Positions 5,615 through 56,000 of a stretch of 64,000 nucleotides of DNA are shown here, in pieces; the stretch's first letter is position 1, and each line of letters begins with the position of its first letter. A program made the translations under genes and the position numbers. Below the pieces are notes generated by a model. It was not told where the DNA came from and did no database searches. It saw only the letters and a list, made by a program, of their open reading frames with translations. Where the stretch lies: assembly GCF_963676685.1 (NCBI RefSeq), contig NC_092348.1, positions 11,098,001 to 11,162,000 of the forward strand. Direction: 5' to 3'. The stretch comes from Mytilus edulis. Its lineage: Eukaryota.

Positions 5615-6269
5615 GTTACAAGTGAACTATTATCTGAAAATATTATTTTGATGTATTCTATCAGTAAGGTCAATTTACGGTTGTTTCTTTCGATGTTCAG
5701 AATTCAAGTTACTCTAACTTTATACAAAAAAATAAAATGTTAATGTTATAAAGAGAACCCGGCAATGACTATCATGTCAAAAGTCGAGAAAAGTTACAAT
5801 AAAGCCGAATGTAATATCAGGTGATCTGGAGGGATAGTAATAAAATACGTGTGGTTATCTAAACATAATAATCCTTTCTTGGTTTCGTTCTTACCATTGA
5901 ATTGTCAATGATAAATCTCCATGTCATTCCTTAACACGTACATGTATGCTTTACAATTTTGTTTTAATCAATTTAAATGAAATATTTTAAAAGTTATCTA
6001 TCAATAGTTATCAAAGGTACCAGGATTATAATTTAGTACGCCATCCGCGCGTTTCGTCTTGCAATGTGCATTGTGTTAAAATGTAATATCAGTATTTAGT
6101 TCTATTATAATCTTAAATCAATCCTAATTCTATCTTATTTTTGAGATATAGTTTTTCAAATGTGACGTCATTTTTGTGCTTTTTCATGAAATTCAAATGT
6201 GACTGTAATTTTTGTGCCTTTTCACCACTTCGTATGTGACGTCATTTTTATGACTTTTTGCGTTGAGGC

Positions 6270-8235: not shown

Positions 8236-8583
8236 AAAATGATTAGGGTTGTTTTTATCTCCATTATCTTTATAGATATTATTTAAATACACAGATAATA
8301 GAAAAATATCTAATTTAGATTAAAATGAAATTGATGAAAGCGATTTGACCAATATCAAATCCATTCTTTAATTAAACTCAAACACAAATTACAAATACAA
8401 TACAATAAACGACTGAATAGACAGGAAACTAAAATACAAAAGTATACTATCTATAAAGATGATTCACTTTTTAATGTATATGATGTGTACAAGTTATCAT
8501 TTTGTGCAAATTATGCACACCATGTTATTTTCAGCATCATATATCAGTCTTTAGCATGTGATTCGGACATAGTATGGTTAGAC

Positions 8584-8870
8584 TAAAAAGTAAAATCACA
8601 AAATTACTGAACTTAGAGGAAAATCAATTCGGAAAGTCCATAATCACATGGCAAAATCAAATAACAAAACGCATCAAAAACGGAATGGACAAGAACTGTC
8701 ATATTCCTTACTTTGTACAGGCATTTTCAAATGTAGAAAATGGTGGATTAAACCTGGTTTTATAGCGCTAACCCTCTCACTTTGGTGACAGTCTCATCAA
8801 GTTCCGTTATATTTACATTGATGCGTTAACTAAAACAGACACAATAATTAAAATAGTCAGAATATGGGTA
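8584..8870 (+). repeat. Interspersed repeat (AAAAGTAAAATCACAAAA... family)
   Basis: Highly similar to 15329-15610. A related inverted copy ends near 12866. Confidence 0.75.
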
Positions 8871-9170
8871 CATAGTTATCAAAGGTACCAGGATTATAAG
8901 TTATAACCCCAGACGCGCGTTATCCTTCCAAGGTCAGTGTTTTGGCATTAACTTCTTTTGATTATTTAGAAACATTTTAGTAAACCGGCATCGGATGCAT
9001 CAGACTTTGTCAATATTGGTATTATCATAGAAATTATTTCCCCACCGATCTGTGCTTATACTTCTCTAAAGGTCTCATTTGGTCAAAATTATCCAGTGTG
9101 GGTTTCAGTAATCTATAGAAGCGCTTCACATGTACGATTTTTTTAGTGTTGAAATAATTCCTAGTATAGT

Positions 9171-15830: not shown

Positions 15831-15883
15831 AAATGTAAACAAGGCGGCAAGAATGTAGAAATTGAAAAATTATACAGTGTAAA

Positions 15884-18800: not shown

Positions 18801-21800
18801 CCAATAGGACATTTATCCATCCGATTAGGCAGCAACCATTTGATTTTCTGGGGGGGGGGGGGGGGGGGCTATGGTTTTTTTTCCAGTTTTTGGAGAAAAA
18901 AATAATTTGTTTTTGATTCTGAGAAAAAAAAATTGTTTGTTTCACCCTCAGCTGCCACTATATGTTATGCTAAAATTGAAAGAAAAAAATTGTTTTCGAC
19001 TTGTCGTGAAAAAAATAGATTGTTTTTCGCTGCAGGTGAAAAAAATAATGTGTCAAAAAAAACCAACCATAGCCCCCCCCCCCCCCCCCCCCCCCCCCAA
19101 AATCAAATGGTTGCTGCCTTACATGAACTGTGGAAAAATATCAGTAATTATAATTCCCTCTCTTTCTCTCAATTTGATCTTTAAAATCAGAACTATTAAC
19201 AGTAAATTGTATTCTAGCATCAAATTGTCTGACCTATTTAAAAATCTTGACCTATTGTGTTTTGCTGTCCTCCTTTATCAATGAAATCTTCATAAAGATA
19301 ATTCACATCTAGCACATTTTATAACAAAAAAAATCCTTAGTACATGTATATATACATAGATATAGTCAGATATGGTATGAGTGCCAATGAGACAACTCTC
19401 CATCCAAATAACAATTTATAAAAGTAAACCATTATAGCTCAAATGTACGGCCTTCAACACATTGCCTTAGCTCACACTATAGTTTTAATTATTTTTTTTG
19501 GTACAAGTGGTTTTTTTTAATGGCTGTTCTATTTTTATTAAGGTGCCAAGGTTGAGCCTAAAAAAGGTGAAGACATTGATATTAGAAACAAACCTTCCAG
19601 TTTAAAAACACACATAAGTGACATTGCACCGAAGCTGTCTAAAGAGAGGCAATACCAAAGAACTCTTCAACTGTTGTATGACATAAGGAATGCTAATTCC
19701 AGAGATGCTATGCCTCCAATTGTCAACATTGTTGACCTTGCAAGATTCAGACCCGTGAAGCAACCAGAAGTGAAAGGACCATGGTCCATGCCAGACACAG
19801 TAACTGAATTTTATCCTGGTATTTGCTATGCAGAAAGTATAGATGTGGAAACAACACCACCATCATTAACGGAAATACCTCATCAACAGTTCCAATCTAT
19901 TGACGATAATGGTTACCAGGAGGGATTAAATACTTACATCAATTTAATTATGAAAACTTATAATCAAGCTGATATAAGCAAAATTGAAAACCTGACTAGA
20001 GGTCAATCTGCCAATGAAGAATGGTTTCGACATAGAATAGGGGCAATAACAGCCAGTAAGGTTGTCCGTGTACTAAGTAATAAGAAGAATCAAGATAATT
20101 TTTTGATTGATATTATGAAATACAAACCAGTTGATCTTTCCAGAGTAAAACCAATTCAGTGGGGTTTGAAACATGAAATAACTGCTTTAAAACAAATGAC
20201 AAAATTGTTTGAGCCAAAACATACAAATCTCCAAATTATTCAACCAGGATTGCTAGTAGATAGAACGTATTCATACCTTAGAGCGTCTCCTGATGCAATA
20301 ATGACATGTGATTGCCATGGTACAACTGTAATTGAAATAAAATGTCCCTATTCCAGCAGATATCTGACTCCAACTGTAGCTATATGTCAGAAAAAGATTA
20401 CATATGTTGGCATGGAGAAGGAAAACATGGTTTTGGTTAAGGGTCATCAGTATGGTTACTATGAACAAATTCAAACACAGTTAAATGTTTGTAAAGAAAA
20501 TAACGCAAAATTAGTTATTTGGACAACAAAAGGATTGCTTACGATAGATGTTCCATTTGATGAAATATATTGGACAACCATTATGTTACCAGCTATAAGA
20601 AGTTTCTTTGAGATGCATATAGCACCAGAAATTTTAACCGGCAGACTTAAAAAATCTTTGAACTCTCAGGACAATTTCAAAGACAAAGAGAAGTCTGACA
20701 GCAGTGAAGATTCTACAAATGAATCTTTCTCAGGTAATTTCATTTTCTGTGCTTTTTCCTTACTTAATCTGCGTTTGAACTTAATCACTGTAAGTAGACC
20801 CTAGTGCAAGTTTTTGTCATCACTGTGTGACATTATGTGTCTTCCCAAAATGGCAATATTCAAATTCCCATTTATATATATTTTTCCTTTGAATTGTTTA
20901 ACATTTATCATTCAGGTATGTTTCTTTGTACATAAATTAGGCCTTTGGTTCTCTCGTTCGAATTGTTCATATTTGTAACCTTTTATATGCAGTATGGGCT
21001 TTGCTCATTGTTAAAGGCCGTATGGTGACCTGTATTTAATAATTATAAATGTGTTATTTGGTCTCTTGTGGAAATTTGTCATATTGGCAATAATACCACA
21101 TCTTATTGTTAATATTTGATCATTATTTGAGGTTATATCTGTAAACTTCTATGTCATGATACATATGTAGGCTTTAATTGTCTCATTGTCAATCATATTT
21201 CATCTTCTAATTTTTTTTTATTTGATAATTTCAAATGCTACTAATTAGATATGGGGTTCTTTGATATGCCAAATCTAACTGTGTATGTAGTATTTTCAAT
21301 TGCACAGTATTGCGCAATAGCAAGAAATATCTAATTGCACAATATTGTGCAATAGCAAGAATTTCAATTGGAGTTATCTTTCATTGTCAAGAATAGGTAG
21401 TTGAATCAACTAAAATCATTGTTTTATACAATATATAATGTATATTCACTTTTACTACCAACTGATAAATTAAGACAATCTTTACCATTCAGTGATAACA
21501 AGCACATTTTTACATTTTAATATTTTATGATGTATTTAAATGAGTAATTATTGTTGCAAACTCCATTAGAAATTTTAATTGTGATTAGTTTTGGAATAAA
21601 TGATAGGGGGATGTGAAAAAAAAATGGGGGGGGGGGGGGGGGGAATTCAATTTTTCTCATTTGAAATTTCATAAATAAAAAGAAATTTCTTCAACCATTT
21701 TTTTGAGAGGATTAATATTCAACAGCATAGTGAATTGCTCAAAGTCAAAACAAAAATTTTAAGTTCATTAGACCACATTCATTCTGTGTCAGAAACCTAT

Positions 21801-23244
21801 GCTGTGTCAACTATTTAATCACAATCCAAATTTAGAGCTGTATCCAGCTTTGTGTTGTGTCCATACTTGCCCCAACCGTTCAGGGTTCAACCTCTGCGGT
21901 CGTATAAAGCTGCGCCCTGCGGAGCATCTTTTTGAGGTTGTTATACCACATTCATTCTGTGTCAGAAACCTATGCTGTGTCAAATATTTAATTACAATCT
22001 AATTCAGAGCTGTATCAAGCTAGATTGTTGTGTTTATACAGGCCTCAATTGTTCACGGTGCGCATGGCACAGCAATTTATTTTAATGATAGATCAAAAAC
22101 AATGTACACAACAAAAATGTTATTCAATACATAAAAAACAGGAGAACAAAGTATGAACATGTTTATAGAAGATGTTTCATATGCAAAACTATAATTATGA
22201 CAATTGATTACTTAAAATGGACAATGATGACATCATTCAACATGTTCAACTTAAATATATATAATGAATTAACAACCATTCAACTATGAAGGGGTATTTT
22301 CAATGTTTTGAAAGCATCAACTTATGGGTGTTTCTTTTTTTTTTTGCTGTGTGAATCAAATTATTTTTTTCAGCACTCACTTACATGTAACACTTTAATC
22401 AAAAATATTTTTTCAATCTGCTGCATCAAAAGATTTCTATCTTCAAAGGCAAAGGTTAGGAATAACAGAATAACAATATATTTTTAGAGAAAAAAAACGG
22501 AACCTACTTACAGTCGAATAGTTGTTCTTATAAACAAAGTACAGTTTATGAAATAAAAAAGATTTTAATTGCAAGTTAAATATCGGTAATCATAAAATTA
22601 ACTCCAGACCCCCCCCCCCCCCCCCCCCCCCAATATTAATAATACCGCAAGTATACATATACATGTATGGGCGTGTCACTGTGCTTAGTATTTTTTTAAT
22701 CAAAATCAATTTATAAATTTCAGTTGGAAGATGTATAAAATATGTATTTACGAATGATTTATTTGATCAAATTTCAGAAGAACAAGACAAGAATATTCAT
22801 CTTGAGGGCACCAATGATGATGATGAAGATAATAATGATGCTACTGATGATGTTGATGATGTTAATAATGATGCTGCTGATGATGTTGATGATGTTAATA
22901 ATGATGCTGCCGATGATGTTAATGACCAAAATTTGGCTGGTAAAGAATGTCAGGGATTAAAAGATTGTCAGAGTAAAAAAAGTGATTCGAGTCAGAACTG
23001 GAACTTAGGCTGTGCTTCTTACTGTAGAGACCACAAGGCACCTATATATTCCACAATTAAAGGAGAACTTATTGCATGTGACGCAAATATAGCATGTTCC
23101 TCCAATACATGGTACCATTTTTTCTGTGAAGGTTTTCGGAGGTTAAATATTGAACTTCACAGGGGCAAGAAGTATGTTTGTCAAAAATGTAGACCTTTGC
23201 ATGATCAGAGAGAGAATTTGAAAATGACAAATGGGTTTTTTTAA
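15884..23244 (+). CDS. Transposon accessory protein: SAP-like N-terminus, SWIM finger, YqaJ/lambda-exonuclease domain, acidic repeat, PHD finger; about 824 aa. Exons 15884-16518, 17261-17388, 19543-20733, 22724 (or 22778)-23244
   Basis: GT-AG joins keep the frame and rebuild the SWIM motif CTCTVG|LTQACSH. YqaJ motifs TRGQS..EWF..R.G.ITAS, ASPD, EIKCP, YYEQIQ. C-terminal C..C...C...C....H..C...C..C. No internal stops. Confidence 0.85.
18331..18672 (+). repeat. Interspersed repeat inside intron 2 of the YqaJ gene
   Basis: CCCGCCGCA...AGGAGCCTCT...GGCCAGCTGAAG...TTGAAGACCCA block. A degenerate second copy lies at about 53365-53690. Confidence 0.65.
18828..19118. mobile_element. Tourist/PIF-Harbinger-type MITE
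   Basis: TIRs GGCAGCAACCATTTGATTTT+polyG / polyC+AAAATCAAATGGTTGCTGCC; 3-bp TSD TTA (18825-27, 19119-21). Confidence 0.85.
21235..21932 (+). mobile_element. 3' part of a Helentron-type non-autonomous element in intron 3 of the YqaJ gene
   Basis: Ends in GCGGTCGTATAAA plus hairpin GCTGCGCCCTGCGGAGC. This sub-TIR is the reverse complement of TTTATACGACCGC, which starts the element at about 63945. Confidence 0.6.
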
Positions 23245-23673
23245 TTGATAATTGTGACAATTTAAATTCACTTTTCATACCATTTTAGAGTATGATAGAT
23301 ATGAATACATGTATTTGGTGCTTTTCAAAATCTGTTTACTTTTTGAATCTTCATGTAACTTAAAACACTATTTCAGGACACAAGCTCTAACAACTGATAG
23401 AATCTGAAATTCAAAATCTTTAAAAATTGCCTGATGTTCATTAAAAATTATAACCTGTTTATTGAATTATGGTTTTTAAGAGAGAGCATCATCTTGTTTC
23501 TTAATTTTATATAATAAATAAAAAAAAGACAAAAATTTCAAGACAATACAAACAATAACAAAACATGTAGATCTATCTGCAACTTGAAATAAATAAATAT
23601 TGAATGAATACAAAACATCTACATGTACAAGTATGAAATGGTCTTGAAATACACACACGACCAAGAAATCCAA

Positions 23674-26600
23674 CTACTTCTTCAAAATTGGGGTTTGAAA
23701 ATTCACCAAGAAAGCACATACGGTAAATATTTGTTCTGCCAAATCTTTCATTGATAGTTTTACCTCGCCATCTAGAATGTGGAAAGTTTTCACTCTCTGA
23801 ATGGCACGTTCGACATGAATTCTAACCTTTGAGATATCTTCAGACGTTCTGGCTTCTGAGCTTTTCAGTTGTGCTCTTTCTGTTCCCTTGAAAGACGGCA
23901 TGTGCAGCTTAACACCCATGTCATTTAATATACCACTTATCAAAAATCCCCTATCAGCCATTACAGAACCTTTATTGACTTCTAAATTATGAAGGAGATC
24001 AACTGAGTCGCATGTTATAAATTTATCTGATGCTCGACCACCATACATCCTGCTTACATAAGTTATCCCCATCTGTGGGCTAACACCAATCAAAAACTTG
24101 AATGTGTTGTGGTGCTTATAATTTGAGAAAACCTGTTTTCTTGCATCAAGTTTGCTTGGATTTTGAACAAATATTTCAGTGCAATCAATAATAACCCTTA
24201 CATCTTCAAAATCCTTCATAGCGTGTGATTGATTTTCATTCAATACCTCTTTTGAAGGTAGTTCACATAACTCCTTGAGATCAACATACATTAGATTTAT
24301 CCAAGAGCTGAAAATTTGTGAAACCAAACCAACACTGATTGAAAACCTGATTGCTAAATCTTCAACCAATAAGCCAACTTTGAGACGCACCATAGTTAAA
24401 AAGAATTCATCAATTAACGAAAGCTTCCTCTCTGGACCTCTTTTCCTATCAGAAAATGTATCAGGCATGCCTGCATCACCTTTCCAATATCTCATGTTTG
24501 TAGCCCTTGGTTCAAAATATTGAAATAAAGCATAGAAATTCTCATAATTTGAAAAGCCTGTCCAAAAAACCATGCGTTTAGGATTGTCCTTCATGTTTTG
24601 TAAGCTTAAAATCTGCTTAGCTTGGCTTTCATTAATTTTTTTCAGACGTTCAAGTTCATTCATTTTTTCTTTAATTTCAGGTAGATATTCTTTGATTAAC
24701 CAATAATTTCCTTTTTCTGTTTCTGTATTTATGTAATCATGATTATTAATCTGAGGTATTATTGGTTCATATGGCTTCTTATCTAATGGACGCCCTACTT
24801 GATTATTGGCGACAGTGATATCTTGAAATAATCTTTTTTTTCTCTGTCTGGTCTTGTTTTCTAACTGCCCTGTAGGACGAGATGTATGTGTATTTGTTAA
24901 AGGTATATTATAGTATAGAATAGATATATGTAGATTATCAGGTTTTCTGCACCTCTTTATTTGAAATATCATCTATTATCCAAAATGTGAACTTTTGTAA
25001 CGATAAAGTACCAAAAAAAGAAGCCTGCTTTATCACCATTATTTATGACTGTTTTTAAATTTTGCCTAAGTATTACATTGTATCTGGAAAAAATACTTTA
25101 TCTTAATTTTCAAAGAACTGGTTTAAAATCAGAGTTTTTGTTATTTAACCTCAAATATTGTATTATTTTCTTTATATCGGAGATCAACTATGGAAATATT
25201 TGATTTTTTCAACTATAACTTAATATTATTAAGTGCCAAATATTTGCTCACTTGACCAAAGGGCCAGTTGAATTTTTACTACATGTATCACTTGGTGTCA
25301 ATGATTGATGTTTATGTTGTTTTAAACTTGATAATTTGATAGGATGTATGTCATATAATTTCATTTCATCAGTGTTTTCTGTTGTAAAGATATAGAATGT
25401 CTAATAAGGACTCTGATGCATTCATGTCAGTTTGCACATCTTTTTTATGAAATAATTAATTTAAGCCTCAGGGACACAAAAGTGTGTGAGGGATGTACAT
25501 GTGTATGAGTAACTAGTGAAATAATTACTGTCTGTCTATTTTTTATTTGTTCTTCCATCACATTATTTTTATTGTAAAATATCAATAAAACTTGTCTATT
25601 GACAATTGTTATTTTGACAGTTTTGACTATTTTAACAGCACAGCTGATCATGATCAATAATTTGCCATTAGCGTCATTTAATCTAAAATTTTAAAAGAAG
25701 TTTGATTTTTTGCAATGATGAATTGACCCGTTTGACAAAATTTTCTTGGATTTAAGCAAATTGATTGTAAACCAAATAATATAGGTCAAGGTTTCAGCAT
25801 TTTAAATGCAAGAAATAATTTGCTGATGGTGATATTAATTGTGTATCACTAGATAATATTGTTGTACTTTTTACTGTGTTGTTGTTAATATATTTGGCAG
25901 AATATTGTATTTTTACATGTATTAAATTGTACTAACCATCAATTACTTGTATTTCTTGTTTAGTTGAATTACTTGTTTTTCTAGCTGGTGTTTTCTTTTG
26001 ATATGGGAACAGAGTAGGTATGTAACCTTTTTCTGTTGATGATGTCTGTTTCGTGCCTATAAGATATGCAACAATCAGTACTTTAGAAACAAATAAATAA
26101 CCTCCTGTCAGACTTGAACTGACATCCCTTGATGAAATGGTATCACCAAGTGTACTTCCTTGTACTAAGAAGGTTTCTTAAAAACAAGTACTTAACTGAT
26201 GCAATCTCTAGCATGTCTAGTTATGAGCAAAATATATGGTACATTTGTATAAGGCCTCCACAAGTTACAATCTGGTATGGAAATGCACTGATCTATATTA
26301 CTGTTTAAAGATATCAAGACTTTCTATACTAACGGGACTGATTACTTATAACAATGTCTATACAAATTATCAAACTGATCTCGGCTGTAGCGGATACATG
26401 TAGTATAGAAAGTCCCTGTTTAAATCTATGAAAGGTTAAAGTCCCTGTTTAAAGCTATGAAAGGTTAACAAGCTGGCTGTGGTCCTATATTTTTGTTATT
26501 ATTATATTGATATGTGCACTTAAAAACAAACAATGAACATGATAAACCAAACAATTGACAAATTATCATTGTGAAAATGATTCACCATTTAGTTGTATCA

Positions 26601-37808: not shown

Positions 37809-40800
37809 CTACATATTTCCGATAAAGAGTTCAATTTTTAATCTACATATATATTTTATATCTGACCGTAGTAAAAGTAATTTTAATTCGTTTTTCATAT
37901 GCAATTTTAACAAAGCCTGTATAGACTGCATACTCAGTTTATTTTTTTCGAATTTGCATTTATTACGTATTTTCCAAATAGCCCATTTAAAATAAAGTAT
38001 TATTGCGTTAACAATTATATTATTCGAATTATCTAAACAGATTCCTAATAGAATATCTTTTTCAACGAGTGCATCGTTATTTATTAAGTTACACAGTTGT
38101 AAATTTCTGATAACTGTTTCTATCAATGGTTTAACATTGTTACATTGGTAAAATAAATGCTCAAGAGTTTCAATGTTATTGTTTTCATCACATAAGTGAC
38201 ATTTTCCATTTGACATACGCATTATTTGCAGTCTGTTTTCTGTATATATAATCCTGTGTATACATTTCCATTGAAACTCTTTAACTTTTCTATTAATATC
38301 CAGTTTACTGAGATTTAGCCAAATTTTTTCCCAATTTATGTACTCGCTATACAAATTTTCCCATTTTGTTTGACATATAGGGGTCTCAGTTATGTTTAAG
38401 TTTAACTGAAGATATTTTAATGTCAAATCTTTGATTTTAATGATTTTGTTATCTGGATTTATAAATTCAAAGTTTTCAGAAATTTTGATTTTGTAGTTTT
38501 TTAAAGTGCGTTGTACATCGTTATTTCTTAAAACCTGTATAAAAGTTTGCGGTACGGCACTTTTAATTCGTGAATATTCCGAAATACAATTGCGTCTATC
38601 TATAAGTTGTTGATATATTTCATTGCACGATTTAAACTCATTGGTATTATCATCCCATATATCACCAATGGTTTTTATTAGACTTTTTGAAAAAGAAGAA
38701 TAAAATATAGATTTTCTTTGAAATAAAATATTTGAGTTTCCAAATAAAGGCTGTTTTTTTACTTCCATTTTATTAGTTATTATACCCTGTGTGATCCTTG
38801 TCAATTTTGACCACGATTGTAAAGCGTTTTTGTAATAATGTGGTAGTTTTTTTATCTCAAGACCTGAAAGGTCTGAACATCTACACAGAAAAAGTTTATC
38901 TGCAAATTTTTTATCATATTTTTTTAACCAAAATTTACCTATCGCATTCCAACTTGATAATGGCTTGTGTAATATTGAATATATCGATTTGATATATTTA
39001 CTTTCTATCCAACTATCCAAATTTACCATCCCCATGCCCCCCTTTTTGCCGTCTAAACAACAAACCTTCCGGTCTACTTGATTCACTTTACCATCCCAAA
39101 TAAAATCCCATATTATCTTATTTAAGTCTTTTTTATGTTTTTCAGGTATACCTCTTATTTCTAATTCATAACCACACACTGAAATAATTAAATTTTTAAC
39201 AATAAGGACTTTTCCAGAGTATGTCAATTTTCTACTTTTCCAGATGTGTACACAATTTTGTACTTTTTCCAATATTGATTTCCATATTTTATCGTTATCA
39301 ATGTTATAACCATGGTGAATACCTAATGTTTTTATGTTATCTGTTGTCCAGCTTATCTTTTTAAAAGTAGGCCGTTTGCGTTTATTTGCGCCAATATTTA
39401 TTCCCTTAGTCTTTTCGTAATTAATTTTTGAACCCGAGGCCTTTTCGTATTTGTCTAATATTTCGAAAGATTTTCTAACGGAACTTTCATTTTTATTAAA
39501 TAATTGCGTGTCATCAGCAAACATATTCAATTTGGTTTCTATTAGCTCCCCATTTTCTTCCCCGGGCAGCATAATACCTGCAATGTCTTTGTCTGCCCTT
39601 ATTGCACAGGCCAGGGGCTCTGCTTGTAATATATATAAAAAAGGGGCTATAGGACACCCCTGCCTGGCTGATCTAGAAATTGAAAAATATTTAGAGACGT
39701 AACCATTTGTTTTTATACATGTCTTAGCACTTTTTAATAGCATTTGAACCCAACCACGAAAATTGTCCCCAAAATTAAATTCCTTCATAACGAAGTCTAG
39801 CCATCCCCATTCCATCCTATCAAAAGCCTTTTGTTGGACAAGAAAGACAATTATACCCTCTTCATCCTCACTATCAATATATTCTATGATATCCTGTATC
39901 ATTCTATTTGCTTCCGTTATATGTCTGCCTTTTACAAACCCTTTTTGATCGGGATGTATAAGCTTAGGAAGGACTATTTTTAATCTTTCTGCTAGTATTT
40001 TTGCTATAATTTTATAATCACAATTCAGTAATGTAAGAGGGCGCCAGTTACGTATGTTTTCTCGTTCCCCGCCCTTAAATAGTAGTGTTAAAACTCCTTT
40101 ATATTGTGAGTCCGACATTGTTTTTTTATTAAATATTTCTTGCAATAACGTTAAAAATTCCTCTTGAATTGTATTCCAAAATAATATATAAAATTCTGAT
40201 ATGATCCCGTCCTCCCCTGGGGATTTATTTGTTTTTATAATTTTTAGAACTTTCATTATTTCCTCCGCATTAATTTCACGGTCTAGTAATTGTTTGTCGT
40301 CCTCATTTAGTTTGTTTTCGATATGGCTTGTTAAATATTGAGCATTTTCCAAATGCCATCCTTCGGAACTAAATAAATTTGAGTAAAATTTAACTTGTTC
40401 ATTTAGTATTCCGTCTATATTGTGTTTATAATGCCCATTTTCTGTTTTTATTCGACTCCATAATTTATTTTTACCGTTTTGCTTTTCAAGATTGAAAAAG
40501 TAGCTAGACGATTTTTCACCTTCTTCCGCCCATTTTACACGCGCCCTTATTTTTGACGCCTCTGATTTGTTCTCATAGTATTTTTTAATTAGCGCTTCTA
40601 TTTCTGAAACCTTATTTTCAACCTCACCAGAGTTATTACTGTTTAAATTTAGTTTTTCTAATTTCTGCTCAAGGTTAATAATATAACTTTTTTGAGAATT
40701 TTTGTTTAATGTTTTACTTACTTCCATTGTTAATTTTTTTATTTTTAATTTTGTGACATCCCACCAATCTTGTATTTTTTCGAACCTTTTTTTTTTCAGT

Positions 40801-41637
40801 TTTCCAGGTTTCCCACCAAATTTTGAATGCATTCTTAAATTCTTCACTTTTGATTGTATTTATATTCATTATCCATATACCCGGGCCTCTTTGTATTTCA
40901 TCAAGTTTTAATTTTACCGACACAAGATCATGATCGCTAAAAGGACAATTCGATATACCAACATTGTAAACTTTATTTGAAAGACTTTTGTCACAAAAGA
41001 TATAGTCGATTCTAGACTTAGAATTTCCTCTCTGAAACGTATACCGTTTGTCTTTTGGATACCTATCTCTCCATATGTCTGTAAGATCATATTGTGACAA
41101 TAAAAAAAGTAATTCCTTTGTACCAATATCATCACGAGAGTGAGAAGGATTTCTATCATTTGTTTTGTTAAGAGTACAGTTAAAATCACCTACCAAAATA
41201 TTGTAATGATCTACACTATCGTCTGTAAAATTACCCAAAAAATTATGAAATGATTCAAACAGCCGTTTCCTGTCGACGCCGCTATTGTTAGCATAAATAT
41301 TTGAAATATGATAAATCGCACTTTCCGTTTTTATGCTACATTTTATTATTCGACCGTTTTGTGAGTTAGTATTATCAAACACAACTTCGCCGGGACAATT
41401 TTTTGTTTGTAAAATAGAGACACCACGAGAATCACTAGTTCCGCAGTTCCAAACACTTGTATTGCCCCCATTTATTTTCCATTCATTTTGCCACTGTATT
41501 ATATCATTCACTGTGCAATGTGTTTCTTGTAGACAAATCAAATCATATTTTTTGTTCGCTAACCAATTGAAAACTAAGTTACGTTTTTTGTTATCACGTA
41601 AGCCGTTTACATTCAATGTTATGATTTGGATCGACAT
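37809..41637 (-). pseudogene. LINE ORF2 (AP endonuclease, RT, CCHC), about 1275 aa once one frameshift is corrected
   Basis: APE motifs TLNVNGL, LQETH, GDFN, SRIDY, FSDH. RT motifs KSPGEDG, NWRPLTLLN.DYK, RQGCP, FADD. C-terminal CHLC...ETLEHLF..C. Frames shift in an A10 run (40787-40796). Confidence 0.9.
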
Positions 41638-42663
41638 TCTTATTTAAAGTACTTGATTTGGTTTACATTTTAACACCGCTATGCCTCGTTGATTTATTTG
41701 AAAGTTTACGATCAACGACACCGATTTATATTTACTTTTAATTTTACGAGTCATTGACCAATTATGGCAATACACTAGTAGTGAACACATTTCAAATTGT
41801 CTATATAAAAATATAACAATACAGATACAAAGATTCAGTTTGAAGTACAATAGATTGAAAAAAAATCTATAATAATAATTCAAAATCTGCAATTCAGTAA
41901 AATAAAACATATTTACAAATAACATTTTGGATTAATTTTTTGTTTCATAGTTTTACATAAAAGTCACAAAACATATGTCTTACTAACATTACTTTATGGT
42001 CTAGTGATACTGATACCAACTAAATTAAACATTAATAAATGGGTTTTTTTTCAAAAACTGCTTAAACAGATTTGGTCTCTACCGCAAAATGCTCCTGATG
42101 TTGTACCTTACATTACATCTGGAATGAAACCAAGTGAGGGACAAATACATATACTTTTACAGTATATGTTTACTATCAGAGGAATCAACTGAAAAAAAAA
42201 TTGCCAAATGACAGTTAGCAGTCAAAGATCAAAATAGACACAGTTGGTTTATTGAAGTAAAGAAAATTATTTGGAAATATGATCTTCCAGAAATTTATCT
42301 TTTTTTAGACACTCCACATACCAAAATTCAGTGGAAAAATTTAATGTATAATAATATAAATAAGTATTGGAAAAAGTACTATACAGATATCTCCAAGCTA
42401 AATAGCTCTATTTAGAAATATAAATTATTTAAATGTTGATGCATACCACCCTGGAAAACAACACCCGTTAATTTATATCAAAACATCATCTTCAAGAAAC
42501 ATAAACCGTCTACCTATTAAGTTAAAACTAGTTTCTGGTACATACATTCTCCAAGAAAACAGATCGAAATTTAATCAGAACAATATTGAAGCCACCTGCC
42601 TTCTGTGCGGACAAGAAATTGAAGATTTACCTCACTTTTTATTGTAATGTACATTTTCAGAAT

Positions 42664-46310: not shown

Positions 46311-46410
46311 TCTTTACGAATAAATTATGATAAATAATAAACTTTATGAATAAATTATGATAAATAATAAGCTTTATGAATAAATTATGATAAATAATAA
46401 ACTTTATGAA
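46311..46410. repeat. 30-bp minisatellite, about 3.3 copies
   Basis: CTTTATGAATAAATTATGATAAATAATAAA repeated, downstream of the second alpha-kinase ORF. Confidence 0.9.
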
Positions 46411-47054
46411 ACTGAACTAAAACAAGACTAGATGTATTGACAACGCCACAATGTATAAATAAACACTATGATAAATAATGTAATAATGATTAACACAAAT
46501 AATTAATTAATTGTATAAATTCTATTGCACATGCGTATTTCACATCAATATGTATATTGAATATATCACAGAATTTTAATGATAGATGATGCAAAAGAGT
46601 ATAAAAGTATGATTTGTCATTTTTAAAATACTGATCTCTTATTTCTGAAGCTGCCATTTACATCACATTATAAATACAAACACAAAACCAGACGACTAAC
46701 ATTGAAAACAAATTATATAAACAGAGATTTCATCATTTGTCAGAGAAAAAATATAAAGATGACTTAACATTAAGCCGCCATTTAAAATTTGCGAGATTCT
46801 ACAGTGAAAATGAGATTCGATAGATCTTTAAATACACACAAAAAACGTAGAAATAATTAACATACATGTACAAAGCCCCATTTACGTAAAATAAAGTGGT
46901 AGGGTGAGAAATAAATGAGACTGATAAGCATTTACTTTGCACATTTCGCCATCTAAAACATAATTAGTATGTAAAATTAACTATGCAAGATATAAAATAA
47001 AATACATCAAAATTTCATTATTTAGTAAAAATGTCAAAAATGTAAAGTGTTTGG

Positions 47055-48005
47055 TCATACTTTTTGGATACACTGTCCATGAACCATTGGTCTGCCTTCG
47101 ATCTTACGGATATCGGCATTCGTCAAATTTTCGTACGGCGGAGGACTAACCAAATCGGTTTTGCTTGAAAACAACACTGCCGCTTCACTTTTGAGAATGT
47201 CCATGATGTCAATTTTAGTTTCGGATCCTACGGGTGCACTTGGAACAAGACCAAATGCTGGTGTTGGCCAGTTCTTACAAATGTCATTACATCTGTGGTT
47301 CTTAAAAACGTTTAGAATACCTTGTTCGCCATGGTCACAAGGTCCAAATGACCTATTTCGAGAATGGATAGTGACTCCGGATAGTTTGATGTCCTTATCT
47401 CTTTCTACACCTTCCAGTTTGCATATAACAAAGTCGCCGTTGCTTTCTACATAAGAATAATGTAGAAATGTGTCGAGAAGTTCGGATTCTTGACGTCGTA
47501 TGCCATCACTGTCGATAAATAATTGGTAATCGCCGTCTATGAATTCTTCAATAAGAACATGTTCATGTTCGGCGAGTTGTTTTTCGTATCCTTTTATATA
47601 TCGAAAAGGTGTATTAAATACGGAAACAGAATCCATTTCTGAAAGACATGGCTGGGCAAACTTCAAATGTTTGGTGTTTGGAAATTCATCCTTAAAAGTA
47701 TCAGCTAAGGAACGGGTATTTTCTGAGCAAGTTATCGCAGACTGGAGGTTGTTTTCGGATCCGATTTCATCGTTCAAAGATTTTACAACAGCTTTTGATT
47801 GGCTCCAATATCCATGTTGGTTGTACATACGTCCTTCAAAGACGGTATGACGCTCGCCGACAGCAAATGGATAAAACTCGAAGCTGACCCACCAATTGTG
47901 GCCATCCTCACATTTGGTTTTGGAAAAGAATGTTGAGTTGTTTGTTTTTATTTTTGAAAATACTCCCATTATTTCTGAAAGAGAACAAATGATGTTACCA
48001 ACCAT
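47055..48005 (-). CDS. Alpha-kinase family pseudokinase with a PSAP and PPPY tail (316 aa; real start may be the ATG at 47969)
   Basis: Motifs SFEFYPFAVGERHTVFEG, AVVK, LIEEFIDG, FLHYSY..SNG, TIHS, FGPCDHG..GI, HRCNDIC. DLQG reads KLEG and LTDP reads LSGV. An acceptor-like TTCTCTTTCAG lies just before the second ATG. Confidence 0.85.
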   Translation of the reverse strand: MVGNIICSLSEIMGVFSKIKTNNSTFFSKTKCEDGHNWWVSFEFYPFAVGERHTVFEGRMYNQHGYWSQSKAVVKSLNDEIGSENNLQSAITCSENTRSLADTFKDEFPNTKHLKFAQPCLSEMDSVSVFNTPFRYIKGYEKQLAEHEHVLIEEFIDGDYQLFIDSDGIRRQESELLDTFLHYSYVESNGDFVICKLEGVERDKDIKLSGVTIHSRNRSFGPCDHGEQGILNVFKNHRCNDICKNWPTPAFGLVPSAPVGSETKIDIMDILKSEAAVLFSSKTDLVSPPPYENLTNADIRKIEGRPMVHGQCIQKV

Positions 48006-48786
48006 TGCACTTCAGTTATAATACGGATAACTACCTTGGACGCTTATATACTAGGATAGTATTTGTTATTTTGACCATAAATGAATATAATTCTACCTTT
48101 TATATCACCTGCCAACATGCAAGTTAAAACTTGGCTATGCAGTCGGAGTACTTTGAATTGTAAAAAATCGCAATACGCGGAAATGTGTTATTTTGACATG
48201 CATAGTCTCAAGGATTTTCAATGATTGAGGTATATAATCTATCACTTTCAAGTCTGGATAATAAACATGAGTGTCCCATTTGGTCCACAAAAAATAATTC
48301 GAAATCAAAATAAAACATAATTTATAGCCGGTATAAATAGATAAAGTATGCGTCCTAGTTTATAGAAAATAATATAGGTTGATTAGTGTATGATAACAAA
48401 CTCGGAAAACATTTTGTCGATTAAAAAGTGAAACATTTTGATAAATTCTAAATTTCTGAGTAATATAAGTTACTGGAATAGATTAGGTTCTATATATACG
48501 AGTATGATTTCTTCGACGTCCCTTGTAGGACACGAAACCAATATCTTCGTGTACCAGATTGTATAAACCCTTCGATAATATGCCCTAAATTTATATTTAC
48601 AAAAATAAAACTCGAAGTCAAGCATGCATCAAATAATTTATAATGGCCATTCGTATGTTTTCTGCAAACATAAATGTTATTGCTCATTGAAGACTTATAT
48701 AAAATTGAGGTTCGCATGATGCATCTTTTAGCGTATTGAAGTTGTGAAGTAAATATTTATCAAAGGTACCAGGATTATAATTTAGT

Positions 48787-48830
48787 ACGCCAGACGCGCG
48801 TTTCGTCTACATAAGACTCATCAGTGACGC
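48787..48830 (-). ncRNA. Minimal type I hammerhead ribozyme with an intact core
   Basis: Minus strand reads GCGUCA CUGAUGA GUCU-UAUGU-AGAC GAAAC GCGC GUC^UGGCGU. Helix I is 6 bp, helix II is 4 bp, helix III is minimal with a palindromic GCGC loop. Predicted cut between 48793 and 48792. Confidence 0.8.
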
Positions 48831-49378
48831 TCATATAAAAAAAAGTTATTAACTAAACAATTACAAAGTATGGAGAAAATAACCTTAAAACGGCATCTTT
48901 AAAATGGAAAAAAAAACAACAGAAAATTTTGAAAATCAAAAACTACTTCACTTAAACCAAAAACGTTAGATATAAATCCTTGCTATATCTAAATCCAACA
49001 ATTGTGTAAAGTTTTATGTAAATTTCTCCAAACACACTCAAGTCAAATTGCCTAAAATATGCAGTTAAGTCCCATAACTCTGGAACAAAAAATAAAAAAA
49101 ATCAAAGTAAGAAACGAGCTTTCCATTATCAAATCCAACAACAGCAGTGAAGGTACAGGTTTAATAAGTAAATTGATCTAAGCAAAGTTGCATACTTGAT
49201 TCTGTGAAAGACATACTTATGACAAAAAGGAGAAGGAAAGAACGACCAAATAAATAGACGGATGGACAACAGTATATTGTAAAAATCCGTCATTTATACG
49301 TCAAATGACATTACTTAATTTGTCCCAAACTCTGAATTGGACAAGAAAATAGAATGCTTCCATTACTGTTCATCCGTG

Positions 49379-50311
49379 ATAGAGGTAATATGTAAATGAT
49401 ATACGATTGACTATTGAATTGAATAAATCATATAGGCAATAACTGTTTAGTGTCTTTAAATATCAGCTGTATTTGTACGAGGCTAGGAAACAAGGTGTGT
49501 GTGAGCTTTAAGCGAGCTATTACACCTGTTTCGAGCCGAGTACAAATACAGCTGATATTTAAAGACACTAAAAAGTTATTGTCTTTATCCTGCAATTAAT
49601 CCTGTATATTATTTGTGTTTTTAAAGACACAAAAGCACATGTTTTGCATTTATTTTCGATTTGAAATCCCTTGAGGCCGTGTAGTAAGTAATACGATACA
49701 GTAATCACACATTCAGATGAAGAAGGGTTCGCAAAAAAAAGAATCTCGAATGGTCAACAATAATACATCGCTAAAGGTAAATAATTATCTATTTTAACAT
49801 AACAACTAATTTCAACAATAAAAACAAATAACAAAACATTGTCCAATTTGAAACAGGAGTGTACAAGTTGTCCTACGCTTCAGACTCGACATTCACTAAA
49901 CATACATGCTAAAATTGACATGAGTTGTTTTTGTTACACAATCATACACATTCAAGTTTTGAAATCGATAGTTGTCACCGTAGAAAAGACTGCTGTTCAT
50001 CAAAAAATTGGTGTGATTCTTATTGCTCTACAGAAATGTTTGAAAACAAACAAAACGTATAAAAGTAACCGTTAATTCGCAATTAATACGTCATTGGAAT
50101 GCGACTGCAATACACATTCTGAGGTCACGCAGGTTCATACAATACTCAGTCTGGTAATGGATGGAGCTTTAAAGCGATATCTGTATAGTATACAGATACA
50201 GCATAGCGATATCTGTAGGGCTGTATCTGTATAGTAGAACACCCAATTGCAGGATAAATAGAGGTAATATGTGAATGATATACGATTGACTATTGAATTG
50301 AATGAATTATA
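49379..50311. mobile_element. Unclassified element with 54-bp terminal direct repeats, a palindrome of about 150 bp and an internal 14-bp inverted repeat
   Basis: Direct repeats 49379-49432 / 50258-50311 (3 mismatches). Palindrome 49435-49583. TTTATCCTGCAATT at 49584-49597 and AATTGCAGGATAAA at 50245-50258. Confidence 0.7.
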
Positions 50312-50785
50312 CAGCAACCCAATGACGAAAATAACCAAACCAATCTACAGAACATATGATATTCGACGTTGTTTACCATATCGCTCGGTGTTATTTACTT
50401 TCACCATTATAAGTCGACTATTAGTCCGAATAAATGGTCTTCCAACGTATGAAAAACCAGCATGTGCTAAACTCTTTGAAACAGGAATCATGAAGAATAA
50501 ACTGATCGCTAAATGATTGGTATTTGAATCCTTTTTCGTCTTTTTTTTATAACCCCAATATTACAATTATAGAGGTCAAATTATCCGTTGTATATAAATT
50601 ACACGGTACACGAACCGTACTATATATATATATCAATACAGTAATAACTTGTATATAATAATTAGTGTGATCGGTCCGTGACAAGTTAGTAAAAGTTATT
50701 ATTTTTACCGTAGAATATTTAAACCTTACATAAGACTCTATATTTAAATGTTTTATATATACATGTAAGATGCACGCGTCATATG

Positions 50786-50819
<34 letters not shown>

Positions 50820-52931
50820 ATAGAACTGATGTAAATTACGTATACTATCAATATCATTTACTACCAGGTAAGTTTGTATTTTATCAGCGGACAAAACGTA
50901 CTTTTATATAGAAACTTATACGAAAAACGAATATTCAGGTTATCAGGCTATCAAGTATGTTCTGGTTCTTGGAAATTTTAGTTTTTTGAAAAACAAAACA
51001 TGGATCAAACTATACTAGGATGATTTATGATTATAGATTATCACAACCTTGAACTGGTTTAAAAAGCGCAATCTCATTCTGTATCGTTCATTTGCGGTGG
51101 CGGGCTGGAGCTTATTGTCTAACGACTCAAAGACCCACCACTTCCCCTTCTATTTAAATATATACAATAACAGTTAAATCGAACCAAAATAAACGCTGAA
51201 ATGTTCACAGTAACTGCAGTATAACTATAATGAATTCTAATATCGGCCGCTGCACTCAATCATATACAGACTATGGTATATTATGCCTTTTTTGTGGCTA
51301 GGTTTCTGACTTAGTTTCTGATACTCTACTTTGTTCCTAACTGAGGCTGTCACCAAATAACTTAAGAAAAGAATTTTATACTAAAAACGTAATTTTACAC
51401 CGCGAAATGGGTGCTTAATACAGCTTCACACCAGAACCTTTACTTTGAAAATTACTACAATCCTTCTGTACCTATATCTGTCGATTACATGTATTATCTG
51501 ACCGATGCAAATATATATATATAAATAAATAAATTCTTTTTTTTTGGGGGGGGGGGGGCAATCTTTTTCGCCAAAAAATATAATGTGTTTGAATGACATT
51601 ATAAATACTTATGATATCCTTTAATGTGGATTGACCTTTTCTACTTTTTAATATGCTTCACATGCTTGCTTATTTATAAAGTTTACATCCGTATATCAAA
51701 GCGTATAACACCTATATTACTGTTAAGTGAACTTATACTTTAATAAATAGAATTGTTGTAACTCCTTCCATATACTTACTCGTTTATTCTATAAATTTCA
51801 CTATGCAGTGAGATAAAATAAATAGTGAAATTATCGAGGCATTTCTCCGATTGTGAAAAAAATACGAATGATTCTTTTTTTAATTTCTTGACACTTAAGA
51901 ATAGCAAATATTGGTGAAAACAAAATCGAACACCCATGTTTTAGTACACAACGATTATTTAATAAACAAATAAGAAACAATCGTCTAGTACACACCAAAG
52001 ATTATGGTAGTAATCACCATTGTTGATTTATCTTTACCATTAGGCATTTCAAATGTGATGGTGGTGTAGTATATAGGGAAAAGCCCAAAAGGCATCTTTC
52101 CTGCTTTTTACGAAAGGCAAGAGAGGAAGGATAACAGATTTGTTGACGAAAAGAGGTGTTTAATGTATAACATAGGCCAAGAAAAAAGATTCACAGTTGT
52201 GACAAACAAAATCATCTACTTTGTTACCTGATGTTTTTGTTCTTTTCTGCTCAATTCTTGTACTGCAATTAAATATTAAAAAAGAATTACAAATCAATCA
52301 TGTTGAATGAATCATGTTGAAGTATATTTGCCTTTATTTTGTTTATAAAAAAGATTGGCAAGATATCAGATATATTTTAAGAAAACGGTGTTTACCAATC
52401 TTTAAATTGTACATGATGTAACATTTATTACTTATATCACCTGAGCATATATATTTTTACCTAAAGGTAAGTGAATTCATTAATCTATTTATGTATATAT
52501 TGATGATTGACTTTTATTTAAATTTTCTGCTTTATTCGTGCTTTGATTGGTCTCACTCCGAAAAAGAAAAGATAATATTGCGTACTATTTACTGCATATA
52601 AATAACTCTTTTGTAATGTATACGTTAACTATCATGACTTGGTGAAAGATGTTCATATTCCCATTACAGGAATCTCACAATATACTAGTATGGACTTATT
52701 ACCATACCAACTGCTTCTTTATTTCACGTTCTACTGTGTGAACATGGCTATATGGCTATAGGGCACGGGTATGAAACATTTTTACTTCTACCCTTTTCGT
52801 ACACAAACCAAAACGTTGTGAGGTAGCAAAAGGTTTCGTTTTTCTTTACACTTTATTGTAAATCGAAAATGACTACTCATTGCGTCTAATAGACGACATA
52901 TTAAAAATATAGTATACAATTTTACATTTTG

Positions 52932-53040: not shown

Positions 53041-56000
53041 AATAGGCTATAATTGTTATATTATTAATTTCCGACCATATTTGTATCAATTGACTGTTCG
53101 AATTTTATAGATATCTTATTGTCTCCTAGACTTTAACAACATATAAGTTGTTATTTCATTTACTATCTCGTGTATTTTAAGATTTTTTTTCTTAAAATAA
53201 TCGATCATAGATATTTTTTATAAAACTTTAAACAATATCATGAAATTCATTACATGACGGTAACAAAGTATGTCGGTTTTTATATATTCTAAAAATAACC
53301 GAGCAATATGCATATTGCTGTGCAAGGTTGTTGTAACATTTTTAGAAAACCAAAATTTTTGCTTGTACCCGCCGCATTTTTGTGCATATCCCTAACTAGG
53401 AACCTCTAGCCTTTGATAGTATTGTGTGTGTTCGTATTTTATTTTGGTTCATTTGTATGTTTTGGAGTTTAATGTTGCGTCCATCTCACTTAACTACGAT
53501 ACATTATTGTTTAATAGGGGCCAACTGAAGGCCGCCTTCAGGTCGCAGAATTTTCACGCTGCGTTGAAGATCCATGACAGTGGGCTGTTTTCCTCGGAGA
53601 TCAGTATTTTTGTGATTTTTACTTTTTTTACTCTTCGGTCGAGTTGTTGTCGCTATAACATATTCCCCGTTTTCGTTCCCTATTTTATCTATTCGCCTAT
53701 ACGTAATATCTGGCAACTACATGTTCTAGTAAATCAAACAGAGTGAAATTCATAAATCGAAACATAACGATTATACTACCATACCTTATAATACATGTAA
53801 TATAAGCATATTTTAAAACATTTGAGGCTCTCGTGGTCTATAAATGCTTAAGACAAAAAGAATTCGAAACGTGCTTCGCTAGGCGTAGAATTTTTCACGT
53901 TTAAACCATGCGTTATCAAAAGTATGCATCACATAAAAAAGATAAACTATAATAGCGAGTGTTCTAATGATTTAAAACGTTTGGAATCTTGATATGTATC
54001 GCACGTGCCGCTGATACGTGAATGTTATCGGCATGTGCAGTTAATAGTTATTGTATAACTTGAACAGATGTTGGTAGAAGATATATATAAATCAATAGTA
54101 CATTGTAAGGCAATACACAAAAAGGTAAGTATAAATCAATACGTATACAGACCTCAGCAGTATCGACAGGATTTAGACAGTGTGATGGTGATGATCAGTT
54201 TAGCCTTAGTTAATTTATAATCAGTTTAGATTCATCTTATTTATATTTCCGTTTTCTTTATTTTAAGTGTTAAAAAAAGATTATAAAACGTAACAAAAAA
54301 TGTATTTAATTCCCTGTCTTAGAATGAGGCCATAAAACAATCAATAACACATCCTTCCTTGTATTCATATCTAATACACATTTATTATTTCAGTAAATTA
54401 CAATTTCCTGAACTTTTGCCTTTTTTCGCAGAACCTATTATACCCGCAGATCCGGTGTTAATCTTTTAATTTTTTTTAAAGTAAAGTTACAACATTCGAA
54501 TTTCAATTACTAGTTTAAATAAGAGCTAATATCAATCATGTAAATATACTTTTTACTAAGTTTGAAACCTGTGTATCTTTTGTTACTGGCTATTCTACAA
54601 CAAAAATATTTTTTAAAAAGGTATATTTCTATGGCCATTATCAGGTTATCGTCACTTGGGTCTTTCCCATTGCGACTAGGGGTATAAATCGACATACAGA
54701 GGTTGGTTTGTCAGCCTGCTAAACTGAGGGGTAAACGGATACACTCCTTTTTTTAACTGATATATAACAAGAGGTTTTTTATGTAATTATTTGAATTATC
54801 GGTTTGCTGCTTCTCTGACATATATTCCATTTCATCGTAAATTCACAATGTTCTTAGAAATTAATTTTGGAACTTAACTTCAACACATAACTAAGTGTAT
54901 GAGTGTTTAGGTTATCTCATAATTAAGGTAACTAATAGTTCGTCTTACCTGCAGTTTTTCTAAGCTTTGGTGTGTCGACTGTTACAACATCTTATAATCT
55001 ATATAATGAGTAAAACATAAACAGATGTAGTCACGAATCTACTTGGTAAGTAGTGATGATTGCTGTGTACTATGAAGTTAAACAGCACACTTTTGTTTAA
55101 ATATACTGTAAATATAATGCAGCTCTATTTTGTTTAAAGTAATGTAATTTATCATATTGTTTGTTATCTCATTCACGGAATTTTTCAAGTGTACTTTCCA
55201 TCTATAAGAACTTTCGTTTTCATGAAAAGCAAAAATTTAAAGCAATAAACATTACAACAATAAAAACATTTTGTAACGTATGTATCTACAAAATCAAAAG
55301 TAAAAAATATCTGTAACTTTAGCAGTGTAATGACTTTTTCATGAAATAATTTAACAAAAACGTGTTAGAATATAATTTCATGTTTGATCTTTCGAGTAAT
55401 GGGAAATTCGAGTAATTTCAATATCTTGTAGAATGTTGGAAAACAAACCCCTCTCGTAATTATTGACATTATAATGCAATACTTTAATATACATATGATG
55501 AATACACATGAAGTTTATGAGGAAATACTTTATTCAATAAATTCAAAAAATGTATGTGTTTAGAAACATTCAAATCTGAAGTAAGTCTTACCAAGATTGA
55601 TCCCAACTGTATTTATTCTCTCTTTCTGTTCTTCTGTGATGATCTCTGATCTTTTTATCTTCCTGTATGTATTTTCTCTCCTCCTTTGATCTATGGAAAC
55701 AAATCATTAACATTTATCAGTACGAGGCTGAAGTATCAATCAATACACATAACGGTGAAACAGACTTCGATTTGTGTATTGGAAATGAGGAGATTGACAT
55801 AACAGATCTCACGCTGAATTATATTATTGCTATTGATTGGATAAATATGAAATATAAATGAATAATCATTAGTTATCAGGTTTCTTGAGTATATCAATGA
55901 ATGACCTGTTAATTAGCACCTTGCCTTCTGGTTTGGGAGTGTATTGAAATTTGATGCAGGATCAATTGAAGATATTATTACGAATTATATCGATGATTGA

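Follow-up and report, generated by a model that had tools for sequence, protein, structure and literature searches.

A predicted α-type pseudokinase of Mytilus edulis with PSAP and PPxY tail motifs: a molluscan family and a candidate NEDD4/ESCRT-I adaptor

What could be the role of a protein that retains the fold of an α-kinase, has both catalytic aspartates replaced, and ends in a tail with one PSAP and one PPPY motif? The question is raised by a reading frame on the minus strand of Mytilus edulis contig NC_092348.1, within the window analyzed here (the whole stretch of 64,000 nucleotides from position 11,098,001 to 11,162,000). P(S/T)AP binds the UEV domain of TSG101 and PPxY binds NEDD4-like ubiquitin ligases (PMC7995964, in excerpt), and the initial annotation had proposed a pseudokinase repurposed as a cargo adaptor for ubiquitin/ESCRT sorting or vesicle budding.

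The gene and its kinase domain

The transcription unit and a second family member in the window consist of the following elements:

47055-47969 (-): coding sequence, 304 residues in one coding exon, a dead α-kinase with a PSAP/PPPY tail (open reading frame, Pfam, Mytilus orthologues)
46381-47054 (-): 3' UTR up to the end of contig X1, with a polyadenylation-type hexamer at 46580
47975-52227 (-): intron of the 5' leader with GT-AG splice sites (spliced in contigs of X9, X2 and X1)
52228-52262 (-): leader exon of 35 nt (transcript contigs)
54949-55143 (-): alternative upstream exon, with a stop codon in frame (transcript contigs)
55592-55690 (-): alternative upstream exon after an AG acceptor, the leader being covered as far 5' as this exon (transcript contigs)
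871-1719 (-): paralogue with an MG start, the first aspartate kept, the second lost, and no tail

The proposal presupposed a transcribed gene, and spliced contigs with a GT-AG intron show that it is one. Contigs of runs X9 (recorded as RNA) and X2 splice out the intron at 47975-52227, and X1 has a variant of the joint; the contigs link 47974 or 47978 to the exon at 52228-52262 and then to either of the two upstream exons. Contig sets from three of the four runs examined span the coding sequence and then fall to near zero within the next 400 bases. At least half of the words of the stretch are present in 20 of the 24 listed runs, from 9 studies (one of these runs is recorded as RNA), and the raw RNA reads of run X24 reach a depth of at most 1.4 over the gene. 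The MG start, previously given as likely, is fixed for the leader through 54949-55143, since a stop codon but no ATG lies in frame there, and MG lies at the same position in 7 of 8 orthologue clusters; the leader through 55592-55690 is, as far as it is covered, an open frame that lacks an ATG, and the database models that extend through it use a different frame. The 90%-identity cluster of the protein comprises five Mytilus species, labelled “alpha-protein kinase vwkA-like” or left without a name.

In the tail-less paralogue at 871-1719 (-), the MG start looks canonical and the insert is acidic/basic, and a same-score copy of this paralogue on a small contig (G000 C1253) is probably a haplotig. 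Elsewhere in the window, inspection by eye identified a LINE-type endonuclease/reverse-transcriptase element in two overlapping frames (37809-41643, -), and, within 15866-24972, a YqaJ-type nuclease-like ORF (19542-20804, +) and a PIF/Harbinger-type transposase-like ORF (23674-24972, -), which may together be one DNA transposon.

The domain features of the protein are as follows:

47259-47948 (-): α-kinase fold, about residues 8-237 (block pLDDT 83-98; VIA)
47781-47783 (-): Lys63, the ATP-binding lysine, retained (alignment column with intact members)
47418-47420 (-): Lys184, where the catalytic aspartate of the DxQG motif is expected (alignment)
47376-47378 (-): Gly198, where the metal-binding aspartate of the TDP motif is expected (alignment)
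47277-47297 (-): zinc motif H225-x-C227-x3-C231, with the fourth ligand, His170, at 47460-47462

Pfam Alpha_kinase (PF02816) is the only family matched (residues 38-231, E-value 9e-26, 91.5 bits against a curated cut-off of 21.3). A structure model built from an alignment of 142 family sequences has a mean pLDDT of 84.8 and is confident over approximately residues 8-240; the tail is of low confidence, as expected for linear motifs in a disordered segment. The top matches of the model in Foldseek and VIA are α-kinases throughout, the best in VIA being eEF2K, EhAK1 and MHCK-A with Z-scores of 20.9-21.2 (eEF2K 8gm4: Z of 21.2 and rmsd of 2.9 for 210 residues), and an Atlas search returned α-kinase clusters only.

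The conserved elements of α-kinases include two cleft aspartates (D1767 and D1777 of TRPM7), a cleft lysine and a zinc finger (PMC2827801, in excerpt), and the MHCK-A mutants D756A and D766A are inactive according to the titles of PDB entries 4zs4 and 3lmi. The mussel protein has the invariant lysine (Lys63) and neither of the cleft aspartates. Aligned without gaps to 4kuj, an α-kinase of Entamoeba, the protein reads KLEG for DIQG and LSGV for LTDP, such that Lys184 and Gly198 align with the two aspartates and Glu186 with the conserved glutamine. The zinc ligands His170, His225, Cys227 and Cys231 are all present; among the 142 sequences, His170 and Cys231 are invariant and His225 and Cys227 are conserved at 90% or more. 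The alignment, the model and the ligand check thus bear out the earlier reading, that both aspartates are replaced while the fold and zinc residues are kept, and the protein is likely, by this residue criterion, an α-type pseudokinase.

It is conceivable that the domain still binds nucleotide or catalyzes an atypical reaction, with a tail that simply localizes the enzyme. Lys63 and the hinge glutamate are retained, and bioinformatic assignments of pseudokinases are imperfect (PMC9698156, in excerpt). However, both aspartate positions vary freely among the 96 dead members of the family described below, which indicates that no catalytic constraint acts on them, and the closest orthologues also lack the P-loop arginine. 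We therefore consider residual activity very improbable.

Tail motifs in the orthologues and in the molluscan family

The tail beyond Cys231 is 73 residues long, rather than about 65 as first estimated, and contains, at the positions originally reported for PSAP and PPPY:

47232-47243 (-): PSAP, residues 243-246, predicted TSG101-UEV ligand (motif conservation)
47133-47144 (-): PPPY, residues 276-279, predicted WW-domain (NEDD4-family) ligand (motif conservation)
47124-47135 (-): YENL (sequence position)
47076-47093 (-): third conserved tail motif, RP[LM][VI]H(G) (87.5% pairwise identity, 8 clusters)

Among 427 candidate proteins, 8 passed as orthologues (60-98% identity); a profile version of the word-based homologue search again gave 8 matches, none of them new. 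The resulting 8 clusters include the query, and P0002 was left out as the query's own cluster. PPxY is present in all 8 clusters and P[S/T]AP in 6, and the orthologues use both variants of each motif (PSAP or PTAP, PPPY or PPSY). Pairwise identity across the clusters is 73.9% for the domain and 31.5% for the linker between the motifs, compared to 100% for PPxY and 75% for PSAP at fixed positions. The motifs are thus conserved within otherwise variable tails, as the initial annotation required. In a wider set of 22 closer and farther relatives, which are partly non-independent, PPxY occurs in all 22 and P[S/T]AP in 15; the seven relatives without PSAP include three scallop sequences, and the scallops have two PPxY motifs. 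YENL, which overlaps PPPY and had been listed alongside it, was rejected as a sorting signal: YxxL follows the PPxY prolines in only 2 of the 8 clusters, and by this distribution YENL is incidental. C-terminal PDZ or CaaX signals were also discarded, as the last residues vary among the orthologues.

Searched with a profile, 1.84 billion representatives yielded 2178 hits with E ≤0.001, of which the best 150 were examined. Eight without an alignable zinc motif or catalytic columns were removed (P0057, P0058, P0121, P0156, P0157, P0183, P0184 and P0197), and the 142 retained sequences comprise 96 that lack at least one aspartate (80 lack both) and 46 that are intact. The residues found in the 96 dead members are diverse: Gly (48), Asn (27), Asp (14) and others (7) at the first site, and Thr (31), Asn (26) and others (39) at the second. 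Twenty clusters were looked up; organism names are attached to 8 of them, each a mollusc (scallops, unionids, Mya, Gigantopelta, Haliotis, Elysia, Arion and Nucella), and the family may range more widely. Contig C5 of M. edulis carries five single-coding-exon family genes, all of which start with MG and lack at least one aspartate; of the four paralogues of the mussel gene there, two have neither motif, while the other two bear a single one, PSAP in one case and PPSY in the other. An intron-containing eEF2K-like gene on contig C9 keeps DIQG and TDP.

Among tails of 40-400 residues, P[S/T]AP, PPxY and both together occur in 39, 43 and 31 of the 69 dead members, compared to 3, 4 and 2 of 37 intact members, the intact set being defined by residues without taxon labels. 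In 1000 composition shuffles of the 69 dead tails, the corresponding means are 0.85, 3.3 and 0.06 and the maxima 6, 12 and 2. Decoys behave differently from the true motifs: seven of the eight permutations of PSAP occur in 0-2 of the 69 tails and the eighth in 11, where it overlaps true sites, while PPxF occurs in 4 and PPxW in none. PSAP precedes PPxY in 30 of the 31 tails with both, and an unbiased scan of three- and four-residue patterns ranked PPPY, PSAP, PPSY, PPxY and PTAP as its top five. As the tail was itself part of the search profile, the count was repeated on the 39 dead tails outside the profile match; 21 of these have PSAP, 21 have PPxY and 16 have both. The motifs are absent from 15,058 domain residues, and 39 of the PSAP type and 63 of PPxY are found in 8,431 tail residues, with up to five PPxY copies in some members.

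Short motifs may also arise by chance in proline-rich, disordered tails. The null used here consists of shuffles of the family tails rather than a background of unrelated molluscan tails, which leaves that explanation some room. In the mussel tail itself, both motifs appear together in 7 of 200,000 shuffles (a post-hoc test), and the shuffle, decoy, order and orthologue tests all speak against a chance origin, which is largely refuted and, in our judgment, hardly tenable. This is, on the evidence of the sequences, a real family of bivalve and gastropod α-type pseudokinases in which ESCRT-I and WW-ligand motifs have been selected.

Other signals in the tails were also considered. The ALIX-type pattern YPx(1-3)L is not enriched (5 of 69 dead tails compared to 5.2 expected). 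The acidic dileucine-type pattern [DE]xxxL[LI] occurs in 17 of the 69 (5.9 expected; 200 shuffles reach at most 14) and, as one among several patterns tried, provides no more than a lead for clathrin-adaptor sorting in the tails of P0052-P0200. Two dead members, P0101 and P0130, have tails of 3072 and 1305 residues, that of P0101 with many short Gln-rich repeats. At locus L036, two convergent dead paralogues (1989-3806, +, and 6131-9166, -; frames of 606 and 1012 residues) have long low-complexity tails, one with PSAP only and the other with PPSY only.

The distribution of the motifs over the family bears on what they do. In trees of 135 rows and, with short or incomplete rows left out, 129 rows, most intact kinases form one clade, and five intact members that bear motifs group among the dead motif-bearing members; the motifs thus do not require catalytic loss. 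By Fisher test, the gain of motifs is strongly coupled to the loss of catalytic residues, yet the 129-row tree offers only 3 independent pairs for it (and 7 for the co-occurrence of PSAP and PPxY), none of these tests is significant, and we therefore do not claim co-evolution of the two. Neither motif is found in 38 of the 96 dead members, many of which have tails too short for one.

These patterns would also be expected if the protein were its own cargo, such that the motifs bind NEDD4 and TSG101 but serve to control the level, or the export in vesicles, of a signaling or decoy pseudokinase. All of the conservation data fit this possibility equally well. Some intact relatives bear the same motifs, as they would a regulatory tag, and the existence of tail-less dead members, including the paralogue at 871-1719, implies that the dead domain has a role of its own that is free of the motifs. 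On the other hand, the pairing of the motifs, their fixed order and the multiple PPxY copies resemble adaptors such as ARRDC1 and SIMPLE more than simple degrons. We regard the self-cargo explanation as unlikely, although it deserves serious consideration, and continue with the adaptor reading.

Membrane contact and partners in the mussel

An adaptor of this type would be expected to act at a membrane, for which two regions of the protein are relevant:

47943-47969 (-): MG start and short hydrophobic/basic helix, residues 1-9, possible membrane anchor (conservation; model, helix 3-6)
47565-47627 (-): basic amphipathic insert, residues 115-135, with a helix at 119-126 (identity, charge, model)

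Across 22 close relatives, Gly2 and Lys6 are conserved at 90% or more. The MG start had been noted with an implied myristoyl anchor. The PROSITE-type N-myristoylation consensus, applied to the N-termini of the family, does not match the mussel protein (P0001) or 12 of the 13 near relatives listed, and such an anchor is therefore doubtful for this orthologue group; N-myristoylation of the mussel protein may nevertheless occur, since Gly2 itself is conserved. Across the family, the pattern is present in 15 of 90 dead members compared to 16 of 33 intact ones, and an MG start in 25 of 90 compared to 19 of 33. The insert has a pairwise identity of 85.7% over the 8 clusters, compared to 73.9% for the domain, and its median net charge and hydrophobic moment, obtained without a shuffle control, are +3 and 0.56 in dead members compared to +1 and 0.43 in intact members. 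We suggest that it is a candidate surface for binding to a membrane or a partner.

On the partner side, exons of a TSG101-type UEV are found at three places on contig C10 and represent at least three loci (L014, L015 and L016, at about 50.0-50.9 Mb of G000 C10). The matching Mytilus TSG101 (P0230) gives a gap-free alignment with the human UEV and keeps all 12 residues that contact the PTAP peptide (list from PMC7650771, in excerpt), including Met95, mutation of which abolishes PTAP binding (PMC2172688, in excerpt). HECT domains are plentiful, with 97 matches in the genome counted over the HECT class as a whole, all subfamilies together; tandem, near-identical HECT exon matches at 76.7-77.5 Mb of G000 C10 suggest a local expansion of E3 ligases. 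A complex prediction for residues 1-146 of P0230 with tail residues 232-263 gave a score of 0.00; it was run without alignments and with peptides outside the tested range of the tool, and counts neither way. In Mytilus trossulus, P0242 is a UEV fused to a RING finger (PF13920) that has 10 of the 12 PTAP-pocket residues and is possibly an E3 ligase that reads P[S/T]AP.

The partners could also differ from those assumed, with PPxY binding a WW protein that is not a ligase and PSAP another UEV protein, such as the UEV-RING paralogue, rather than serving ESCRT sorting. Scaffolds of the YAP/Yorkie or MAGI type are examples of non-ligase WW proteins. The greater constancy of PPxY relative to PSAP in the 22 close relatives, the presence of several TSG101-type loci and the largely preserved pocket of the UEV-RING fusion are in keeping with such an arrangement. 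Against it, P[S/T]AP extends to gastropods and distant bivalves among the dead tails, its permuted forms are not enriched, and the UEV-RING fusion is found in just 1 of the 34 UEV proteins listed. We consider these alternative partners distinctly unlikely and retain NEDD4-family ligases and ESCRT-I as the predicted ones.

Proposed function and relation to known systems

We propose that the catalytically stripped α-kinase is a peripheral-membrane trafficking adaptor for NEDD4 and ESCRT-I, a reading that we regard as, on balance, somewhat probable. From the known biology of the motifs, PPxY in the tail would recruit a NEDD4-family ubiquitin ligase and PSAP would recruit ESCRT-I via TSG101. The dead domain may, as a more tentative part of the model, dock on the membrane via the N-terminal helix and the basic amphipathic insert, and might also hold cargo, which would be ubiquitinated and then sorted to multivesicular bodies or shed in vesicles, by analogy with ARRDC1 or SIMPLE. 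As PPxY is never lost in the close relatives, the main function is probably the link to the ligase, with that to ESCRT-I as an accessory. For the original suggestion of a cargo adaptor, motif conservation, transcription and recurrence across the family offer support, while the adaptor or budding step itself is one that we infer.

The closest functional parallel is ARRDC1, an α-arrestin of ARMM vesicles that likewise combines a non-enzymatic folded domain with a tail of PSAP (for the TSG101 UEV) and PY motifs (for NEDD4-family ligases) and is a soluble protein acting at membranes (PMC9105457, in excerpt). It differs in having an arrestin fold rather than an α-kinase fold, and for the mussel protein binding is a prediction and budding a possibility. 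LITAF/SIMPLE is a small zinc-binding protein. Its PSAP is needed for TSG101 binding and for sorting from endosome to lysosome, and it has a link to NEDD4 (PMC3514783, in excerpt). In contrast to the mussel protein, with motifs C-terminal to a 230-residue kinase fold, SIMPLE has a cysteine-rich domain and is a membrane protein of endosomes.

The tail had also been described as retrovirus-like, which holds as an analogy. Retroviral Gag late domains share the PTAP/PPPY motif plan (PMC7995964, in excerpt), and the arenavirus Z protein combines an N-terminal glycine, a zinc-binding domain and a C-terminal arm that is disordered and contains PTAP and PPPY, of which PPPY is also the dominant motif (PMC3509680, in excerpt). 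Unlike these viral proteins, the mussel protein is encoded by a gene of the host, the leader exons of which are spliced, and departs from the myristoylation pattern. No viral relative was found by sequence (viral contigs gave 130 pattern matches, none of them a relative) or by fold (the best BFVD match is a generic kinase with a TM-score of 0.28), both of which are weak evidence. A further reading, which we consider rather doubtful, is that the family represents host-encoded, matrix-like budding proteins, in which the dead domain would bind the membrane via the insert, cluster, select cargo and, unaided, bud off extracellular vesicles by means of PSAP and PPxY. If true, an ARRDC1/ARMM-like vesicle pathway would have arisen independently on a kinase scaffold and been kept since the split of bivalves and gastropods.

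Among kinases, the fold and zinc site are shared with Dictyostelium VwkA and with EhAK1, MHCK-A and eEF2K, and the database name “vwkA-like” refers to the first of these. VwkA differs by its vWA domain, which is absent here (one Pfam family is matched and the fold begins at about residue 8), and the active α-kinases differ in keeping the catalytic aspartates and, in 41 of the 46 intact relatives, in the absence of a motif-bearing tail. A “VwkA” of the Mytilus shell field was considered as this gene and rejected: the published primer (PMC9283884, in excerpt) has no match in the window, and its site is in a vWA-type ORF of contig C1. The expression data of that study do not apply here, since its “VwkA” is another gene. 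The primer lies in a 457-codon frame at 652-2022 (-) of L013, which by eye looks like a secreted, stand-alone vWA protein; as the frame shows a hydrophobic leader and no kinase motifs, its product is probably not a kinase.

A second comparison is with ALPK3, the inactivity of which is reportedly disputed. It has been called the α-kinase family's first pseudokinase and resembles the mussel protein in using the α-kinase domain as a scaffold, but it is a large muscle protein that keeps the predicted catalytic aspartate and varies in four other residues (PMC9698156, in excerpt). The proteins of the molluscan family are, by comparison, small, lose both aspartates and bear trafficking motifs. The oyster kinome lists molluscan α-kinases without known function (PMC4883820, in excerpt). 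The full-text literature, which excludes most subscription journals, yielded no description of the family, although the supplements of the oyster kinome (PMC4883820) may list members; within the same limits, the initial statement that no α-kinase of this architecture has been described stands.

The pairing of PSAP with PPxY is known from few cellular proteins, and the examples named in the papers cited here have folds of other types; NEDD4/ESCRT adaptors would thus have been reached by a new route if a kinase fold serves in this role. The label “vwkA-like kinase” on these genes is misleading. Beyond the single described case of ALPK3, the family represents a phylum-level radiation of predicted α-type pseudokinases with a readable clue to function, and it may give testable access to the release of vesicles and the down-regulation of receptors in molluscs.
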